The notes beneath the pieces are model-generated. The model saw nothing but the letters and a program-made list of their open reading frames with translations. It was not told the origin of the DNA and ran no database searches. The position numbers and the translations under genes were made by a program. From positions 32,001 to 96,000 of the IMG/VR virus record IMGVR_UViG_3300001525_000065: a DNA stretch of 64,000 nucleotides; one strand, written 5' to 3'. Below are positions 1 through 60,794 of this stretch, piece by piece. Positions within the stretch are counted from its first letter, which is position 1, and each line of letters begins with the position of its first letter. This DNA comes from a virus (lineage: Duplodnaviria > Caudoviricetes).

Positions 1-2343
1 GATGATTTCTGTAAGCGTGAATTGGATAATGCAGATAGGATCTCATACGATATAGAGACGAATGCAGAACCTACTTTCTCGAATAAATTTGAGGTAGTAG
101 GATTCTCATTGGCATCAAGAGGAGATAAAGGAAGTTATACAGTTATTAAATCTCTTGATTACGAGATGCCAAAGAGAGATGTATTACTGGTTAAATCGAG
201 AATACGCAAGTTATTGACAGAGAAGAATTGTGTATTGACATATAACTGCCTGTATGAGTTGCCTGGTACTCTTAATTGGGCTAATATTGAGATTAATCAT
301 GTGTTTGATGTATTCGTAATGGTCAAGCTCATGGTAGGTGACTCAGCCAAGTATATGGGTGGTCGAGGATTGAAAGCACAGTGCTCGTTACATCTAGGAT
401 ACAAGGATTGGTCAAAGGATCTGGACATTTATTTGGATGCGATTCAAGATCTCAAGCATAAGAAAGGTACAGTAGTAAAAACTCTTCTTAAATATTATAA
501 TAAAGCAGAAGTAGTGAATCTTATGCAGATACTTGAGCAGAAGATTCAAGATGATCCTGATTGTATCTCACGAGATGTTGTTTCTTATGGATTAGCACCA
601 TACAAACTCATAGGGAAGTATGGTGGAATTGATGCAGAAGTATTGTTCCCATTGTACGATTATTATGAAGATCAAATAAATAAGATGAGTGCAGAGATGA
701 ATATCGATTTGCATAAAGGTCTTGATTATTGGATGAAGCATCATCTAGCAGCATACGTTCTTGAGCGTAATGGAGCATACTGGGATGAGCAAGAAGCTCA
801 GAAAGTTTCAGCATGGTGTAGGAATATTGCACAAGAGTCATTGGCATATCTTGTATCATCTCCATTGACATTCCCATGGATAAAGAATAAAGTTATTTAT
901 AATGAATACCTGGCATGGCTTAGAAACAATAAGTGCCAAGAGATTCTAGGAAGAGATACAATTCCTAAGAGAATAACTAAGAATACATTAGAAATTATCA
1001 CAACTAATCAAGATCTTATGAGTATTCTTGAAGGCATGAGCTTGTCTCCTAGTAAGACTAGTTCAGAAGGGTATAAGTATAAACTTGCTATGGGGCATTT
1101 TGAAAAGCTGAGTGAGCCTTATCGCAATTCTCATGCAGAAGAGTTTGATGATTTTGCTCAGATGTGGATGGATAAATATATGGCAGAATCTCATTCAGTT
1201 GATGAAATGAAAGCATTATTTAATCCCATGAGTAATACAGCAGGCATAAAAGCTCAAATAAGTGAGATTCTTATAACTCCTGCAGTGAGATATGCTCGAA
1301 TTTATGACCAGATTCTTATGAAGATGGAAGCTCCAGATTTTGATATAGATGCAATTTGTACAGCTAAGTGGGATTCTAGTGTAGTATTTGAATCAGATAA
1401 GAAGTTATTGACTCTTGTGAGTAAGTTGAATAGCATGGATATCTCTCAGAGTAAGAAGCTAGAGATGTTCTCGAGGCAGCTTAATTCATCTACAGATTAT
1501 AGATCATGGATGATGAAAAATTTCATAAAGGACTCATTGAATTATAAACTGGATAGTACAGATGATAATCATATTATTGATATCTATAGATGGTATACAT
1601 TGACTGGAGTAGATATAGAGGATGAATCTACATGGAATGACAATTTTAGATGGCTGTATAACTATCGTATGTTTAAGAAGTCATCAAAGATGATATCAGT
1701 GTATATAGATGGTGCAGTTGGTCATCAGTCAGTGTATTGTGCAGATAAAGAATCGCTAGAACGTGGAGACCTAATGACTAAAACATGTGGATCATATAAA
1801 GATCATAATGGTGCATACATATTGCATACTAAGTTTTCTCCATGTGCTGCTGATACTGGACGATGGAAAGCAACGATGCATGTCCTCCCTAGTGGACGCA
1901 CAATAAAGCGTGTAATAAAATCAAGATTTCCTGGAGGAGTTGTATTCTGCCCTGACTGTTCCCAGGCAGAGGTGCGTACTCTTGCACGAGTAGCTCAGGA
2001 TAAGAATTTGATGGATGCATTTGAGAATGGTCTGGATATACATAGATATGTAGCATGCCTCACTGGAGATACGGAAGTACTGCTTGCAGATGGTTCAAGT
2101 AGAATGATAAAAGATCTAGTTGATTCAGAAGTGGGAGTAGCATGCTTGGATAAGAATAATGAAGTCACTACTAAGATGGCTACTAACATCAGAAAGACAA
2201 AGTCAACAACGAAGATAGTAGAAGTAACTCTTGATAATGGAGAAGTAATAAGATGCACGCCTGAGCATCTATGGCTTACTAAGAATGGATATATTGAAGC
2301 AAAAGATCTAGAAGGTTTAGATGTAGTAGGAGTAGCTAAATGA
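1..2343 (+). CDS. polA: Family A DNA polymerase, N-terminal part, ending in split-intein N-half (IntN 2056-2340); frame is open from base 1, so the start lies upstream of the window
   Basis: 3'-5' exonuclease motif YDIET; TGRW; motif A DCSQAEVR; DIHRYVA followed by intein block A CLTGDTEV and block B CTPEHLW; stops after 95 intein residues. Confidence 0.93.
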   Translation, partial: DDFCKRELDNADRISYDIETNAEPTFSNKFEVVGFSLASRGDKGSYTVIKSLDYEMPKRDVLLVKSRIRKLLTEKNCVLTYNCLYELPGTLNWANIEINHVFDVFVMVKLMVGDSAKYMGGRGLKAQCSLHLGYKDWSKDLDIYLDAIQDLKHKKGTVVKTLLKYYNKAEVVNLMQILEQKIQDDPDCISRDVVSYGLAPYKLIGKYGGIDAEVLFPLYDYYEDQINKMSAEMNIDLHKGLDYWMKHHLAAYVLERNGAYWDEQEAQKVSAWCRNIAQESLAYLVSSPLTFPWIKNKVIYNEYLAWLRNNKCQEILGRDTIPKRITKNTLEIITTNQDLMSILEGMSLSPSKTSSEGYKYKLAMGHFEKLSEPYRNSHAEEFDDFAQMWMDKYMAESHSVDEMKALFNPMSNTAGIKAQISEILITPAVRYARIYDQILMKMEAPDFDIDAICTAKWDSSVVFESDKKLLTLVSKLNSMDISQSKKLEMFSRQLNSSTDYRSWMMKNFIKDSLNYKLDSTDDNHIIDIYRWYTLTGVDIEDESTWNDNFRWLYNYRMFKKSSKMISVYIDGAVGHQSVYCADKESLERGDLMTKTCGSYKDHNGAYILHTKFSPCAADTGRWKATMHVLPSGRTIKRVIKSRFPGGVVFCPDCSQAEVRTLARVAQDKNLMDAFENGLDIHRYVACLTGDTEVLLADGSSRMIKDLVDSEVGVACLDKNNEVTTKMATNIRKTKSTTKIVEVTLDNGEVIRCTPEHLWLTKNGYIEAKDLEGLDVVGVAK

Positions 2344-3968
2344 AATACACTAAGAGATGCATAATTTGTGATAAAGAATTCACTACTACATCTGCAACTA
2401 AAGTGATATGCAATGATGTACACTATCGCAAATGCGAGATATGTGAGGCAGAATTCATTCTGCCTGCTAGAGCTCCTGATAGAACTACATGCAGCAAAAG
2501 ATGCACATTCATGAAGAATTATGGAGTCCCTAGTCCATTTATGTCAGAAGTAGTTAAGGCTAAATCTCGTGAGACTAGTATGAGAAAGTATGGAACTATC
2601 AATCCTTTATCATCTGATGTAGTGAAGAATAAGATCAAAGAGACCAATCAGCAGAAATATGGATGTGATAATCCTATGAAGTCAGAAGAGATAAAAGCGA
2701 AAGCTAGAGTCACTAATCAGAATAGATATGGAGTAGACTACCCTATGCAATCTACTGAGGTGCAAGAGAAGTCTAAGCGAACGTTACTTGATAAATATGG
2801 AGTAGACAATATAAGCAAGTTATCTGAGACATGGGATAAGACTCATGAAACTTGGATGAAGAATTATGGAGTACCTCATCCGCTTAAATCAGCAGTAGTG
2901 AAAGATAAAGTAATACAGACTAATCAAGATAAGTATGGAGTAGACTATTTTACACAATCTGATGAATACAAGATCAAAACTTCTGAGGCTTGTATGGATA
3001 AGTATGGAGTTGCTTATCCGTGTATGACTGATCAATGTATTCAGGCTAGTAGCCGAATATCTAAAGTGAATAAACGATTCATGAAATTCTTAAACGATCA
3101 TGGAATAGATGCTGAATATGAGTACCGTCTAGGCAGATTTTCTTATGATCTTCATGTATTGAATACTAACATACTTATAGAAATCGATCCTACATTTACT
3201 CATAATGTAACTACTCCTCATCATGATTATATGATTGATAAAAGTTATCATTTGAGCAAGACATTTATAGCTGAAGAGAATGGATTTAGATGTATACATG
3301 TCTTTGACTGGGATGACTGGAGCAAGATTCTGGACGTAATAAATCCTGATAAACATAAGGTCTATGCACGTAAATGCCAGATAACGAAGATAAGTAGTGC
3401 AGAGTGCGATGACTTCATGAACAAGTACCATTTGCAGAATACCTGCAGAGGTCAATCAGTTAGACTTGGATTATCATACAATGATGAGCTAATTCAGGTT
3501 ATGACATTTGGTAAACCTCGATACAATAAGAATTATGAGTATGAGTTGCTGAGATTATGTACTAAATCTAGATACTCTGCAGTAGGTGGATCCAATAAGC
3601 TATTCAACTACTTCATACATAATTATAATCCTAGATCCATCATCTCTTATTGTGATAATGCCAAGTTTACTGGAGATGTGTATGATTCATTAGGAATGGT
3701 ACTGCAATCATTATCAGATATAGGTATTCATTGGTTTCACAATGGTATTCACATTACTGATAATCTACTGAGACAGCAGGGATTCGATAGGTTACTAGGC
3801 GATAAGTATGGCACCTATGGCAAAGGTACTAATAATGAAGAGCTGATGAAAATGCATGGATTCATGCAAGTTCCTGATTGTGGACAAAAGATATTTGTAT
3901 GGAGTAATGAGAATAATCTGAACGAGTCTACTTGTGGAGGTAATGATAATGGAAGTAACCAAGCATAA
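2340..3968 (+). CDS. Free-standing putative homing endonuclease (Zn-finger N-terminus, KYG repeats, Vsr/PD-(D/E)xK-like nuclease, Hef-like C-terminal domain)
   Basis: CxxC pairs; repeated KYGVD/NP units; YDLHV...ILIEID...H...GFRCIHVFD nuclease pattern; sits between the two intein halves. Confidence 0.75.
   Translation: MKYTKRCIICDKEFTTTSATKVICNDVHYRKCEICEAEFILPARAPDRTTCSKRCTFMKNYGVPSPFMSEVVKAKSRETSMRKYGTINPLSSDVVKNKIKETNQQKYGCDNPMKSEEIKAKARVTNQNRYGVDYPMQSTEVQEKSKRTLLDKYGVDNISKLSETWDKTHETWMKNYGVPHPLKSAVVKDKVIQTNQDKYGVDYFTQSDEYKIKTSEACMDKYGVAYPCMTDQCIQASSRISKVNKRFMKFLNDHGIDAEYEYRLGRFSYDLHVLNTNILIEIDPTFTHNVTTPHHDYMIDKSYHLSKTFIAEENGFRCIHVFDWDDWSKILDVINPDKHKVYARKCQITKISSAECDDFMNKYHLQNTCRGQSVRLGLSYNDELIQVMTFGKPRYNKNYEYELLRLCTKSRYSAVGGSNKLFNYFIHNYNPRSIISYCDNAKFTGDVYDSLGMVLQSLSDIGIHWFHNGIHITDNLLRQQGFDRLLGDKYGTYGKGTNNEELMKMHGFMQVPDCGQKIFVWSNENNLNESTCGGNDNGSNQA
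3903..3930 (+). promoter_or_regulatory. Promoter-like motif AGTAAT-N12-AACGAGTCTA upstream of the IntC-polymerase gene
   Basis: Matches the motif at 6201, 8348, 10767, 53201(-) and 63663(-); directly upstream of an SD and ATG. Confidence 0.65.
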
Positions 3969-4923
3969 AGTTGTATCAGTAAAACAAATAGAATTAGATG
4001 AACCAATAGATGTATATGACATGGAGGTAGATGAGCATCATAACTTCTGTGTATCATGTAATGATGGTACTAGCGTAGTAGTTCATAATTGTAAAGCATT
4101 CAATAAGCCAATGGAAGAAGTTACTAAGGCTGAACGAAGCTTTGCTAAAGGTGCTGTCTTTGGTCTTCTGTACGGTGAGTCAGAAAGATCATTTGCTGAG
4201 ACATTCACACATGGTGACATTGATAGAGCTAAAGAGATATTCAATAGCATCTTCACTGCATTTCCTGGCATAAAGACTTATATTGAGAAAGCTCATCAAC
4301 AGTATAGAGATCATAAGAAAGTCACATTATTGACAGATAGATTCATAGATCTTACTGAGATAGAACGTCAGAATGGTAATGACACTGATAGAATTCTGAG
4401 ACAATCACAAAATTATGTGATACAAGGAAGTTGTTGTGACATAGCAGGTCTTATTCTGTATAAGATATGTGAATTTATAAAGAATAATAACATGAAGAGT
4501 AAGCCATTTTGTTTCATACATGACAGCATAGAGATTGATTGTGATCCTTCAGAGACCTTCAGAATGATTGATGCACTTGCTCCACTATTCAATCAGTATC
4601 CTAGAGATGCATTTGGAGTGCCTATGGCATCAGACATAGTGCTCAGTACTAACATGGGAGCAGAATGCGAAGTAGTAGAACATATTCATGACGATGATTA
4701 TCAGCACATAGAATTGACACTTAATGGATTCAAGGATGACCTAGATGATCTGTATGACAACTGGTTACCAGTGTATAAATCAGTTACTTATGTGGATGAT
4801 GAATCATCTATAACTGAAGAGAGATTCCCAAGATCTGGATTGTTTCAGAAGAAGGTTACATTCTCAGAGGATATGGGTAAGACTAAGATCAAGTTGAATC
4901 GTAAATTCATAATAGAGGTATAA
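3949..4923 (+). CDS. polA: Split-intein C-half (3949-4089) fused to the DNA polymerase A C-terminal part
   Basis: GGAGG at 3936-3940 before ATG 3949; block F VYDMEVDEHHNF, block G VVHN then Cys+1; motif B RSFAKGAVFGLLYG; motif C HDSIE. Confidence 0.93.
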   Translation: MEVTKHKVVSVKQIELDEPIDVYDMEVDEHHNFCVSCNDGTSVVVHNCKAFNKPMEEVTKAERSFAKGAVFGLLYGESERSFAETFTHGDIDRAKEIFNSIFTAFPGIKTYIEKAHQQYRDHKKVTLLTDRFIDLTEIERQNGNDTDRILRQSQNYVIQGSCCDIAGLILYKICEFIKNNNMKSKPFCFIHDSIEIDCDPSETFRMIDALAPLFNQYPRDAFGVPMASDIVLSTNMGAECEVVEHIHDDDYQHIELTLNGFKDDLDDLYDNWLPVYKSVTYVDDESSITEERFPRSGLFQKKVTFSEDMGKTKIKLNRKFIIEV

Positions 4924-37438: not shown

Positions 37439-40400
37439 TTATGCCAGTATCGCGCCTCTGCAATACATATTGCTATTGATCATGCGCTTACCATAGCTCA
37501 TCATCCATGCACGACGTCCTACAAGGTCATCAGTGCGAAGGAGATCAGAAGGAGTAATGGGAAGGAAAGGACAATATACATCGTTTGTGTTACTGCTACT
37601 TCGTTTCCAAGTAGCATCACTAAGTTTCCTTAGTGACCAGACTATATCATTACCTCATGTATTATGATGAGGTATCTCACACTTTGAACTCACTTGAGTC
37701 CTACAGAGTTGCCACTCTTAGTCGTTGAACTTTCTACTTATACATAATGTATAAGATAGCTTAGCTGCTGATTATCCATTGTTGCAAGAGGTTAGATTAC
37801 TCATACTCTTATACTGAAGATTCTTTCTGCTTTCGCTGCATTCGCACTTGCCATCACTGGCTATGTTGTAGCTCTTCAGCCTTTAGGAGTTTCCAGCAAT
37901 TCATGAGATTTTCAATGACCAGTCACCTGGCCATGGGACTGTTTAGTAACCAATTGCTTATGCAGCTTTATTAGTACTAGTTAATCCTGCATCAAAGAGA
38001 CCTGTACCTCTGTATCCAAGCACGTACTCATTAGCAGGGAAGTCAGGAGATACATATACAGTGAACTGCCCATAAGTGCCAAGGAGGTAAGGACCTACAC
38101 CTGCATTACCGCTAGGAACAAAGTTACGAGAAGCAGAGATAACTGCTGCTACGCCAAGTCCACATACGAGAACATTCTATTCATTCAATAAGAATCGTTA
38201 CTTCTTATTCGTGTATCATACATGCACTGCTAATCATTTCTGACTAGAATAGACTATATCTTCATCATGGCATCTATTACCAATGACATGATGCTCATCA
38301 TTTTGATCTTACTTAAGATCTACTCTACTTGCTTCTTCACTAGTGGATTTCTCACTAGTTATGCTTTCGATAGTCGTTGAACTTCTACTCATGACTAATC
38401 ATGATGTAGTAGCTGCTGATTGTCCATGTATCTCAATAATTCTCAAGCATTCACACTTGTCATCACTGACTATGTTGTAGCTTATTGAGCTTTAGGAGTT
38501 TCCAGCAATTAGATGAGTTTAGACAGACCGATGTTACGCAGCCTGTACCTTGCGAGTATTCTGATAGATGATGTTGCTACCTTCAAGAAGTCTAGCATAG
38601 AAGGAGTCATAGTGGTCAAGGAGTGAAATGGCAGTGGGCTGAGCCTTAGACCATGCAGTGTTAGTAGCGCCTGCCTGAGCAAGAAGGTCTCCGCATACCT
38701 CCATATCCACTTCATGTGCTAGCTCACCAGCAACCTCAGCTGCCATTAGAGCATCGATCTGATTTCCATCATTTATGTTAGCTAGTCATTTCTGACTAGA
38801 TCAGACTATATCTTCATCTCATTGTCAGTGAGATGTCATTCATTTCGATTTAAGGGGATCTCACCCACTCATCATGTATTGTGATGAGCCCTACTCCTAT
38901 AGAATAGTTTATGTCAGTCTATTCCTTATAATTGGGATAGTCGTTGAACTTTATCCTATTCGGATTTTAGCTGCTGATTGTCCATTATGGAGATGTTTAG
39001 GATTTAACCATGCATCATATACTCATTTCTTTTTACTTTCGTAGCATTCACACTTGTGCTTATTTCATCACTATGTTGTAGCATGAGTATCTTTGGGAGT
39101 TTCCAGCAATTAGAATGATTTATTATTGTACTCATCACTGAGTACCGGAGCTTGGCTTTCAGATGATCGCTAACTCCTTCTCGAACTGAAGCGCAGCACT
39201 GAGGGAATAAAGAGATTTAATGGTACGATCCTTAGCTACGATCGGAAGAGATTCAATAGAGAGCTGAACCTCAGGAACTGCAGCAGGAGCATACTTATTG
39301 TTATAAGTGTATGTAGCAGTCCATGTACCTGCACCAGGAGCAGCAGTGAAGGTAAGTGCGCCAGTTGCATAGTCAATAGAACCAGCATCAGTGCCGCCCT
39401 TCTTGAGGTTGCCATTACCATCATCAGTGTAGACATTAGTGCCTTCAGTGATGTTGACAGATCCAGGAGCTACAGGAATCCATGCAAGAGATACAGTCGT
39501 ATCAGTTGCACCAAGTGCAAGAACTTCACCATCAACAAGTTCTGCAGTGTAGTTCTCATCAGACTGACCACCATAGATGGACGTCATGAAGGTGTCACCT
39601 GCTTTAACCTGACCCTTGTTGGATCCATAGTTATACTTAATATAATTTACCATACCTACGCGAGCAGACCAATTACCTTACAAATACATCGTATCCACGT
39701 ATTCTCTACATATTACTATGTAGTTGAGACTATATCATCATCTGAAGTACTGTTACTATACATCAGATGCTTCGCACTTCGATTTAAAGGATTTATCATG
39801 AGTTATTATCGCTCATGTACCTACCACTTGGCTCTACTCTACTCAGTTATTCACTAGTGTATTTCTCACTAGTTATCCTTTCGATAGTCGTTGCTCCTCT
39901 AGTACTACTCAGGGCACTAGAGGATCAGGATTGTCCATGTACTGCGTAACTTTACATGGAGGTTCCCTGAGTTCACGAAGTTTATCATAATAGATCACTC
40001 TATTATGCCACCTCATTGATGGGCTGCACTGAAACTAGATCGTACATAATGGTGTTAGGTACCATTGCATTAACGATATCCACATTTATCTTACGAATGT
40101 ATCGTATCCATACATTCTCTATACATTACTGTATAGATGAGACTATATCACATTCTCATTGACTCTTCACCAATGAGAACCTCACCATTTCGATTTAAAG
40201 GATTTACCATAAGCTAATCTCACTCATGTACCTACCACTTGGCTCTACTCTACTAGCTTATCATCACTGTCATATCTCAGATTAATTAGTGATTATGCTT
40301 TCGATAGTCGTTGAACTACCATCCTGCATCTAGATGATAGCTGCTGATTGTCCTAGAACTAGTTAATGATCATCCTGGGAGTTCCCAGCAATTAAGTGAG

Positions 40401-40644
40401 TTTGCATAACTAATCACTTAGTTATGGCGCAGGAGATTTACGCCCATCTCTTATATGATCCAGCAGAACCACCAATAGAAGTTACCTGAGTAGCCTCGAG
40501 GAGGTTCTTAGTATTCTCAAGAGTTGCAGCAAGTGCATTCTTACGATCGATGGAGAGAGCCTTACCAGTGGCTTTCTCAGTCATGGTTATACGCTTACCC
40601 CACTTCTCCATAAGAGCTGAATTAGTTTTAGAAATTGCATTCAT
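37439..40644 (-). CDS. Major capsid protein (gp23-like), 443 aa after splicing; exons 40644-40440, 40082-40019, 39669-39173, 38769-38540, 38176-37984, 37581-37439
   Basis: Exons total 1332 nt (444 codons) with no internal stop; junctions restore gp23 motifs WA-L-DIV, VSVQP-M-SARVG, EKE-Y-GNQID, QA-NVLV and DAG-Y-VYCPF. Confidence 0.93.
37582..37983 (-). ncRNA. Group I intron 5 in capsid gene (402 nt, no ORF; enlarged 44-nt P1 loop)
   Basis: P1 GGAU/GUCC with U.G; P AAUUGCUGGAAA, Q AAUCAGCAGC, R GUUCAACGACUA, S GAUAUAGUCU; terminal G. Confidence 0.92.
38177..38539 (-). ncRNA. Group I intron 4 in capsid gene (363 nt, no ORF)
   Basis: P1 ACAGGCU/GGUCUGU; P, Q, R and S elements; P10 AACAU/AUGUU; terminal G. 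Confidence 0.92.
38770..39172 (-). ncRNA. Group I intron 3 in capsid gene (403 nt, no ORF)
   Basis: P1 GGAGU/GCUCC; P, Q, R and S elements; terminal G. Confidence 0.92.
39670..40018 (-). ncRNA. Group I intron 2 in capsid gene (349 nt, no ORF)
   Basis: P1 CCAU/GUGG; covaried P4 UCAGG/CCUGA; R CAACGACUA, S GAUAUAGUCU; terminal G. Confidence 0.9.
40083..40439 (-). ncRNA. Group I intron 1 in capsid gene (357 nt, no ORF)
   Basis: P1 GGCGU/GCGCC; P AAUUGCUGGGAA, Q, R and S elements; terminal G. Confidence 0.92.
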
Positions 40645-40659
40645 GATTAGATTCTCCTA

Positions 40660-45951: not shown

Positions 45952-45958
45952 TCATGAT

Positions 45959-46093
45959 CTAGCAATTATGAGATACTATATAATTATCATGATCACATTT
46001 TACTAAGAAGTTATGATAAGGATTAGCATTTATAACGTCATATACTGGTATTGGATTATCATAATGAATATGTGATACTTTAGTTACTCTCAT
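45959..46093 (-). CDS. Split-intein C-half (43 aa plus Cys+1) of the terminase; missing from the ORF track
   Basis: MRVTKVSHIHYDNPIPVYDVINANPYHNFLVKCDHDNYIVSHN-C then TAG; blocks F and G; SD GGAGGTGATC upstream. Confidence 0.88.
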   Translation of the reverse strand: MRVTKVSHIHYDNPIPVYDVINANPYHNFLVKCDHDNYIVSHNC

Positions 46094-60017: not shown

Positions 60018-60794
60018 TTACTTTCTACCTGATAGCTTACGCATAAGCTTTATCAGATCTTTCATTGTCACATAACCATCCTGATCCAGATCAGCCTGAG
60101 ACTCATTAATAGGTACGTTCCATCCAGACATCTTACGAATCATGGTAATGACATCTTTATTGTCGATCTTACCATCATCATTAGCATCACCAATGATGTC
60201 TAGTGCTACATTGACATCCACATTACCTGAGATGCCATCAACTGCACCTTTAGATGAGTACTGCCACATACGTGCACGATCAGACATCTTACCTGCACTC
60301 CAGTTAGCTTCCCAGACAGGGACATTCTTAGGAGCCTTGAATCGATGATCAAGCCAGTAGCTATTAGCATACACCATAGGTCTGAATCCTGCACAAGCGA
60401 TTAGATGACAGAATGTCTCTACATGACTAGATAGTGTCTTGTAGTTAGTAGTGATAGAAGGATCTTCTACATCCACTGCAGCCCATAGCTGATGATTGTA
60501 CTTATAAGGCTTAAGTAGCTCTATATAGTACTTAGCTTCCTCACGTACCTGCTCCTCAGTATTAGCCATGAAGTACCAGTAAGATCCCTGATAAAAATCG
60601 TCACCAATCTGAGATGCAGCTTTGATGTTACGTATGAACTTAGGATCAGTAAATGGAGCATTGTATGATCCATCAGCTAGTCTACCCTGACCTGCCTTAT
60701 GCATAACGAAGTCCATACCAGATGCATGCACTTTCTCGAAGTTGGGATTACCCTGATACAGCGATATGTCTATGCCTTTATAAATAGTTGACAT
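60018..60794 (-). CDS. GH25 muramidase (endolysin-like) with C-terminal dockerin domain
   Basis: GIDISLYQG, AVDVE, WQYSSKG...VDVN; two Ca-loop repeats GDANDDGKIDNKD and ADLDQDGYVTMKD. Confidence 0.9.
   Translation of the reverse strand: MSTIYKGIDISLYQGNPNFEKVHASGMDFVMHKAGQGRLADGSYNAPFTDPKFIRNIKAASQIGDDFYQGSYWYFMANTEEQVREEAKYYIELLKPYKYNHQLWAAVDVEDPSITTNYKTLSSHVETFCHLIACAGFRPMVYANSYWLDHRFKAPKNVPVWEANWSAGKMSDRARMWQYSSKGAVDGISGNVDVNVALDIIGDANDDGKIDNKDVITMIRKMSGWNVPINESQADLDQDGYVTMKDLIKLMRKLSGRK

Follow-up and report, generated by a model that had tools for sequence, protein, structure and literature searches.

The major capsid gene of an SP-15-like phage is interrupted by five group I introns, and introns of this kind appear to end the capsid fragments that unspliced RNA would produce in tails resembling the tag that transfer-messenger RNA (tmRNA) adds to unfinished proteins. 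This is the sole major capsid gene of a 109,711-base genome with terminal repeats (IMG/VR virus record IMGVR_UViG_3300001525_000065). We studied it in a window of 64,000 nucleotides (nt), bases 32001 to 96000 of that genome, where it consists of six exons and five introns that lack an open reading frame (ORF). Judging from sequence comparisons with relatives, these are probably working self-splicing introns that were gained as mobile elements and whose tmRNA-like tails, or spare exons in related introns, limit the damage done by capsid fragments.

The five inserts are group I introns that split a gp23-like capsid gene. By the Rfam model RF00028, which has a gathering cut-off of 50 bits, the window contains exactly five group I introns; they lie on the minus strand between 37.6 and 40.5 kb and score 91, 84, 78, 73, and 67 bits (E 5e-22 to 1e-14). 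All five joints have an exon-final U and an intron-final G. A P1 helix with a U.G pair folds at each of the five 5′ splice sites, followed by P2 where that helix is present. The core elements Q, R, and S occur in all five introns, and P is found by pattern in four and as a variant in intron 2; the P7 guanosine site is present as well. In all five, R and the 3′ strand of P3 are separated by a long insert, a candidate for the P7.1/P7.2 extension of subgroup IA (IA2/IA3). The locus was first described in a first-pass annotation made from the letters alone, and its anatomy holds: the five inserts of 349 to 403 nt all exceed the cut-off, with the expected end letters and U.G P1 folds, the exon lengths of 205, 64, 497, 230, 193, and 143 nt were reproduced exactly, and the share of the locus taken up by introns, given as about 58%, is 58.5%. 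The same annotation described the introns as free of endonucleases, and no sense-strand stop-free stretch exceeds 55 codons in any of the five (near-final boundaries), which leaves no endonuclease ORF. The features are listed below; exons were placed by splice-joint analysis and protein alignment, and introns by RF00028 and the P1 fold.

40654..40658, minus strand: Shine-Dalgarno AGGAG of the capsid gene, 9 nt before the ATG (from the sequence)
40440..40644, minus strand: exon 1, 205 nt, capsid residues 1-68 plus one base
40083..40439, minus strand: intron 1, 357 nt, phase 1, ORF-less group I; guide 40430-40426
40019..40082, minus strand: exon 2, 64 nt
39670..40018, minus strand: intron 2, 349 nt, phase 2, ORF-less group I; guide 40011-40008
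39173..39669, minus strand: exon 3, 497 nt; alone gives a weak Gp23 match
38770..39172, minus strand: intron 3, 403 nt, phase 1, ORF-less group I
38540..38769, minus strand: exon 4, 230 nt
38177..38539, minus strand: intron 4, 363 nt, phase 0, ORF-less group I without P2
37984..38176, minus strand: exon 5, 193 nt
37582..37983, minus strand: intron 5, 402 nt, phase 1, ORF-less group I; 44-nt loop before guide 37939-37936
37958..37983, minus strand: intron-5-encoded read-through tail of the 404-residue truncated capsid protein, 8 residues ending NKAA, then TAA (from translation)
37439..37581, minus strand: exon 6, 143 nt, carries the stop codon

Joined, the exons give 443 codons in a frame free of internal stops. 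The 443-residue (aa) product is collinear, end to end, with intact capsid homologs from Bacillus phage HSE3, Listeria phage LIS04, and Streptococcus phage GXN1 (42-43% identity, E about 1e-126 to 1e-132), and the alignments are gap-free at all five junctions, as the earlier proposal of a spliced 443-aa gp23-like protein would have it. The gene, which is gp23-like (PF07068) of the SP-15-like type, follows those for portal and prohead protease in the head module. There is no second capsid gene in the 109.7-kb genome. Six of the eight listed exon differences from close strains fall at third codon positions, as expected of a working capsid gene. Skipping any single exon would shift the frame, which is kept only when exons 2 and 3, exons 4 and 5, or exons 2 to 5 are skipped, and sigma-70-like sites, sought as internal promoters of the locus, are no commoner than in shuffled sequence. 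The first-pass annotation had expected standard annotation to miss this gene, and we judge its identification right.

Splicing presumably occurs in vivo. Among RNA runs, examined as contigs, one contig skips approximately intron 1 with 30 letters on the short side, a joint that would look identical in an intronless DNA allele. The other joints in these contigs are short or match introns of other organisms.

A ribosome that enters one of these introns soon meets a stop, at read-through codon 1, 6, 5, 2, or 9 for introns 1 to 5. The in-frame stops had been seen before; what had been missed is the SsrA-like tail spelled by the codons preceding them. We surveyed 46 distinct capsid introns of the SP-15-like family, which are related, so that p-values counted by intron overstate. 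Read-through of unspliced RNA ends in Ala in 40 of the 46, always with a nonpolar residue before it, and in Ala-Ala in 22. This enrichment is frame-specific: among stops in the two other frames or the next in-frame stop, only 3 of 130 show such an ending, and ordinary ORF ends in the same loci (n = 1510) have Ala in 6.6% and Ala-Ala in 0.66%. The last Ala codon varies (GCA 16, GCG 12, GCT 11, GCC 1) and all three stop codons are used, which indicates a constraint on the peptide and not on the letters of the RNA. Counted per site, about 15 of 19 end mostly in Ala.

The tail depends on where the intron sits. Past residue 247, 34 of 35 introns have the Ala ending, compared with 6 of 11 before residue 92 (Fisher test, p 0.002 by intron, 0.018 by site), and five of the six introns without it lie before residue 92. 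Such dependence on fragment length would be expected if long, foldable fragments able to join the shell are harmful. At the intron-5 site, the 5′ loops of relatives are long and differ in sequence, yet in the exon frame they encode 8 to 10 residues ending AA, VA, or IA. Reading at this site stops after 8 to 10 codons, within the loop and 5′ of the guide; the tails differ in length by whole codons, and the nonpolar-Ala end is preserved by nine different codon pairs. Family-wide selection for a nonpolar-Ala read-through end is thus well supported by comparison of these sequences. The intron-encoded tail is apparently an undescribed damage-control feature; a search of the literature for natural intron-encoded degrons or truncated products found only synthetic uses, with most subscription journals outside its coverage.

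Within the window, the tails are KRWA, NEVA, LAII, VQAA, and NKAA, so that four of five end in Ala and two, those of introns 4 and 5, in Ala-Ala. In intron 1, a TAA stop arises at the splice site itself, and the 68-aa read-through product ends in an exon-encoded Ala. Intron 2 gives 94 aa, with its stop (40005-40003) within the 5′ arm of P2, and intron 3 gives 259 aa ending in a nonpolar residue that is not Ala (stop 39161-39159). In the 333-aa product of intron 4, the final Ala is intron-encoded (stop 38536-38534).

These endings resemble the tmRNA (SsrA) tag read by ClpXP (PMC10862746), with which they share a short C-terminal nonpolar-Ala-Ala tail on an unfinished protein. In E. coli, terminal Ala-Ala is present in 91% of the strongest ClpXP degrons and is a key feature of them (PMC10862746). 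The host family is likely Oscillospiraceae, to which a GH25 lysin with a dockerin domain points (window 60018-60794, minus strand; closest genomic relative in an Oscillospiraceae assembly, 47% identity). All 14 tmRNA tags that we read from Oscillospiraceae end in Ala-Ala, as VAMAA, VALAA, VAVAA, LAMAA, or VAQAA. At the intron-5 site, tails of relatives end VAMAA, VTLAA, and YAVAA, and other tails end LVA; some relatives thus share the last five residues with tags of the host family. Unlike the tmRNA tag, the intron tail is encoded in cis and ends at a normal stop with no trans-translation, many tails end Val-Ala, and the tail is a putative degron only.

The proposed mechanism combines these elements. 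The capsid gene would have acquired its introns singly, as mobile elements that inserted at conserved spots, presumably by homing, and their endonuclease genes would since have been lost. Each intron would remove itself from the late mRNA, and only the fully spliced message would yield the 443-aa capsid protein. A ribosome meeting an unspliced intron would stop within 1 to 9 codons and release an N-terminal fragment of 68, 94, 259, 333, or 404 aa, and the long fragments could poison shell assembly. Selection would then have shaped the intron 5′ ends to encode a tmRNA-like nonpolar-Ala or Ala-Ala tail for host Clp proteases to destroy. Near the gene end, related introns may meet the same problem with a spare final exon.

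Several observations weigh against this reading. The window tails are weaker than the best of the family: intron 3 ends Ile-Ile, intron 1 adds nothing, the intron-5 tail is polar, and both Ala-Ala tails (introns 4 and 5) have polar residues upstream. Ala-Ala is insufficient alone, and upstream polar residues weaken ClpXP degrons (PMC10862746). The intact 443-aa protein also finishes in Leu-Ala, and among 75 ends in the family 9 are TA or LA. Where the stop lies within P2, RNA pairing could explain part of the pattern; the relatedness of the 46 introns inflates the by-intron statistics; and the host assignment rests on one lysin relative at 47% identity. In another capsid family, two introns that would give fragments of 60 to 100 aa lack an Ala tail.

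Spare last exons are found six codons after the intron-5 site, at capsid residue 403. In 10 loci (L014, L028, L275, L293, L295, L306, L307, L308, L312, and L344), the intron there starts with an in-frame 41-codon copy of the last exon. Spare and true last exons are 72-80% alike in DNA and 85-95% in protein, and a GUAC guide that fits the true 5′ exon end follows the spare exon in 8 or 9 of the 10 loci. Shorter last-exon copies occur at later sites (L004, L029, L346, and L353). At the residue-403 site, the introns of L016 and L321 use an Ala-Ala tail rather than a spare exon. Unspliced RNA of the spare-exon loci would encode a complete capsid protein, so that unspliced and spliced RNA together would give two full-length variants. 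Tail and spare exon would both avoid a stable truncated subunit. In GenBank phage GXN1 (L004), the spare-exon intron lies behind the annotated gene and is itself unannotated.

The tail is also found beyond this capsid family. We drew a wider sample of 112 viral introns by ribozyme motifs only; it was not annotated member by member and gives a trend, not a full count. In this sample, 6 introns end Ala-Ala (p 1e-4) and 4 end Val-Ala. Those enders that can be named are in capsids of two other families, tail sheaths, and SSB, while introns with other endings are mainly in genes for DNA polymerases, psbA, reductases, endonucleases, and RNA polymerase. Introns in the first 26 codons of other genes lack the tail; by eye, most of these can be recognized as the start of a capsid gene that follows a scaffold gene. 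Where a gene codes for a self-assembling phage protein, its group I introns may well carry built-in quality control in general, as tmRNA-tag mimicry or a spare last exon; we favor this broader proposal with somewhat less confidence than the account of the capsid gene itself. Single loci whose read-through also ends in Ala, mostly Ala-Ala or Val-Ala, are L141, L150, and L190 (tail sheath), L086, L130, and L140 (other capsids), and L103 (SSB).

The intron load of this capsid gene is high but not unique. About 20 insertion sites are found in the SP-15-like capsid family, with at least six introns per gene in locus L318, four in L187, at least four in L321, and three in several rumen phages; 47 distinct full-length relatives have no capsid intron. 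Viral contigs gave no match to a query with a single exon, and the relatives were found through alignments of intact capsid proteins. Several sites in the family hold long forms, with GIY-YIG, endonuclease-I-like, or DUF7487 ORFs, as well as short ORF-less forms. Long and short forms at one site reflect the usual cycle of invasion followed by endonuclease loss. With 56-72% likeness among themselves, the five window introns are not a single clade, and recent in-place duplication of a single intron was rejected on these grounds. The intron tree, from which a motif filter dropped 14 introns, is poorly resolved; in it, intron 3 groups with introns at the same site in L029, L318, and L321 (support 96/94), whose tails end TKVA. 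Locus L029 also has an intron at the site of intron 1.

Intron sets differ between strains that are about 92-99% alike. Contigs of close strains carry intron-2-like sequence at capsid codon 274/275 in two independent studies, intron-1-like sequence at codon 95/96 in two other studies, and intron-4-like sequence at about codon 16/17 in one study. The codon 274/275 and 95/96 sites are also occupied by introns in relatives. The joints come from metagenome contigs, which can be misjoined; since independent contigs agree on them, they suggest that the set of capsid introns changes rapidly. Paralogous introns appear to move from one capsid site to another. The terminase and polymerase genes of the same genome are likewise invaded, by introns, inteins, and an endonuclease ORF, which indicates a general parasite load. 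Presence and absence across relatives, turnover, and invaded neighbors fit mobile parasites better than a needed checkpoint.

Four other explanations were weighed. The simplest holds that these are ordinary selfish introns, whose early stop only keeps ribosomes off the ribozyme and whose Ala is a by-product of P1/P2 pairing and shared ancestry. Early in-frame stops are indeed standard in bacterial group I introns and have been described as keeping ribosomes out of the ribozyme (PMC3073962), the surveyed introns are related, and the P2 arm contains the stop of intron 2 and of several relatives, whose Val-Ala codons overlap the guide. Pairing does not account, however, for the intron-5 site, where a loop before the guide holds the stops, the tails differ by whole codons, and the ending is written with nine codon pairs. 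Stops located in P2 in enzyme genes lack the Ala ending, whereas unrelated capsid and sheath genes share it, and the ending depends on fragment length. We therefore consider this explanation unlikely, while ranking it first among the alternatives. Less likely again is that the introns are kept as a regulatory delay, or as a GTP, Mg, or translation checkpoint on capsid synthesis, with the tails belonging to the off state. Five serial splicing events must slow capsid production, tags would give a clean unspliced state, and an on-switch role has been proposed for phage introns (PMC11878797). A needed checkpoint is nevertheless hard to reconcile with 47 distinct relatives that have no capsid intron, with intron sets that vary among close strains, and with the general parasite load seen in terminase and polymerase; spare-exon introns, moreover, bypass splicing and so remove the dependence on it.

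It is improbable, too, that the introns persist by breaking up target sites of competitor homing endonucleases or CRISPR spacers, a role that could coexist with the explanation we prefer. The insertion sites fall within conserved motifs, an ORF-less intron would confer immunity against the endonucleases that relatives carry there, and the DUF7487 ORF of this genome is 44% identical to the capsid-intron ORF of L314. That ORF, however, sits inside the split polymerase intein, its likelier target, and the idea leaves the tails unexplained. The intronless relatives, strain turnover, and spare exons also left no support for the roles first suggested for these introns, namely a splicing delay, a GTP/Mg checkpoint, an intron RNA product, or target break-up. 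We give least credence of all to the idea that the 5′ loop of intron 5 serves the terminase mRNA as an antisense guide at its 10-nt coding gap. Pairing of the loop with the two gap flanks reaches -20.4 kcal/mol, a value equaled by 0.2% of shuffles; yet 2.4% of ordinary 44-nt genome windows pair equally well, both partners are hairpins so that the two arms are not independent, and the pair was chosen after the fact. In addition, same-site long loops of relatives encode tails and pair poorly with the terminase target (-7 to -14), and the guide base that faces the candidate cut site is A, not G.

The window introns, with their putative damage-limiting tails, can also be set beside known systems. 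With the phage IA-type introns (T4 td, nrdB, and nrdD, Twort, Bastillevirinae; RF00028; PMC11878797 and PMC3073962), those of the window share the U.G P1, the P/Q/R/S core, the terminal G, the P7-P3 extension, the early in-frame stop, and the existence of forms with and without endonuclease. They differ in that five lie in one structural gene, and a tmRNA-like end before the stop is not mentioned in PMC11878797 or PMC3073962. In crAss-like phages (Yutin et al. 2021), a capsid gene occurs in five fragments in a genome rich in introns and inteins (PMC7886860). Capsid genes in five or more pieces, and genomes loaded with introns and inteins, are thus common to both cases; that phage group is unrelated, three of its four inserts encode intron proteins compared with none here, and no tails are described there. 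Staphylococcus phage Twort orf142, as it is cited in PMC11878797 and PMC3073962, also has several similar introns in one late structural gene. According to these citations, it has three introns in a tail gene with exon skipping, whereas five are found here in a capsid gene in which every single-exon skip shifts the frame. The capsid gene of Bacillus phage SP-15 (KT624200), of the same family, has a single group I intron, which lies six codons from the intron-3 site and contains an endonuclease ORF, in contrast to the five ORF-less introns here; its read-through ends FDAA. Crass-like phages, Twort, SP-15, and locus L318 thus provide precedents, and the rarity of the intron load had been overstated in the first-pass annotation.

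Elsewhere in the genome, the ORF for the N-terminal half of terminase (G000:C1 3222-539, minus strand; L005:539-3222) contains a cis intein with a weak HNH match. A 317-nt insert (1815-1499) with exon-final U and insert-final G splits its Walker A region; it was missed by RF00028, and read-through into it ends RHA. Next, from 1351, comes a group I intron (RF00028, 60.7 bits; read-through ending SDV), which is followed by an N-intein half; the matching C-intein half lies about 32 kb off on the circle. The 10-nt terminase coding gap (window 45952-45961, minus strand) lies between the C-intein end and Walker B, starts with TAG, and ends with TGA. It is kept without insertion or deletion in a contig of a related strain, which indicates that the gap is real. 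It resembles the 10-nt bypass of Streptomyces phage Hau3 terminase (PMC10732093), and its take-off UGC and landing UGA agree in two of their three letters. The DNA polymerase A gene (window 22-4923, plus strand) has N-intein and C-intein halves around a 542-aa DUF7487 ORF (2340-3968). By Pfam counts, the gene set includes a 5-hmdU DNA kinase domain, dCMP deaminase, the thymidylate synthase family, UDP-galactopyranose mutase, gyrase subunits, and two MazF-like proteins, which suggests hypermodified DNA as in SP-15.

Automatic annotation fragments the capsid genes of this phage group, which is common in guts, rumens, and digesters. The occurrence of tag and spare exon in one capsid family, and even at one insertion site, constitutes a natural experiment, and a self-tagging intron would be a ready part for tight splicing-based switches. 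If our reading is correct, protein-level damage control would stand beside the known RNA-level accommodations, and a mobile RNA would mimic the tmRNA tag. It offers a testable answer to the long-standing question of how bacteria and phages tolerate introns when translation outruns splicing. The cost of insertion would be removed, so that one capsid gene can collect at least five introns that turn over between strains.

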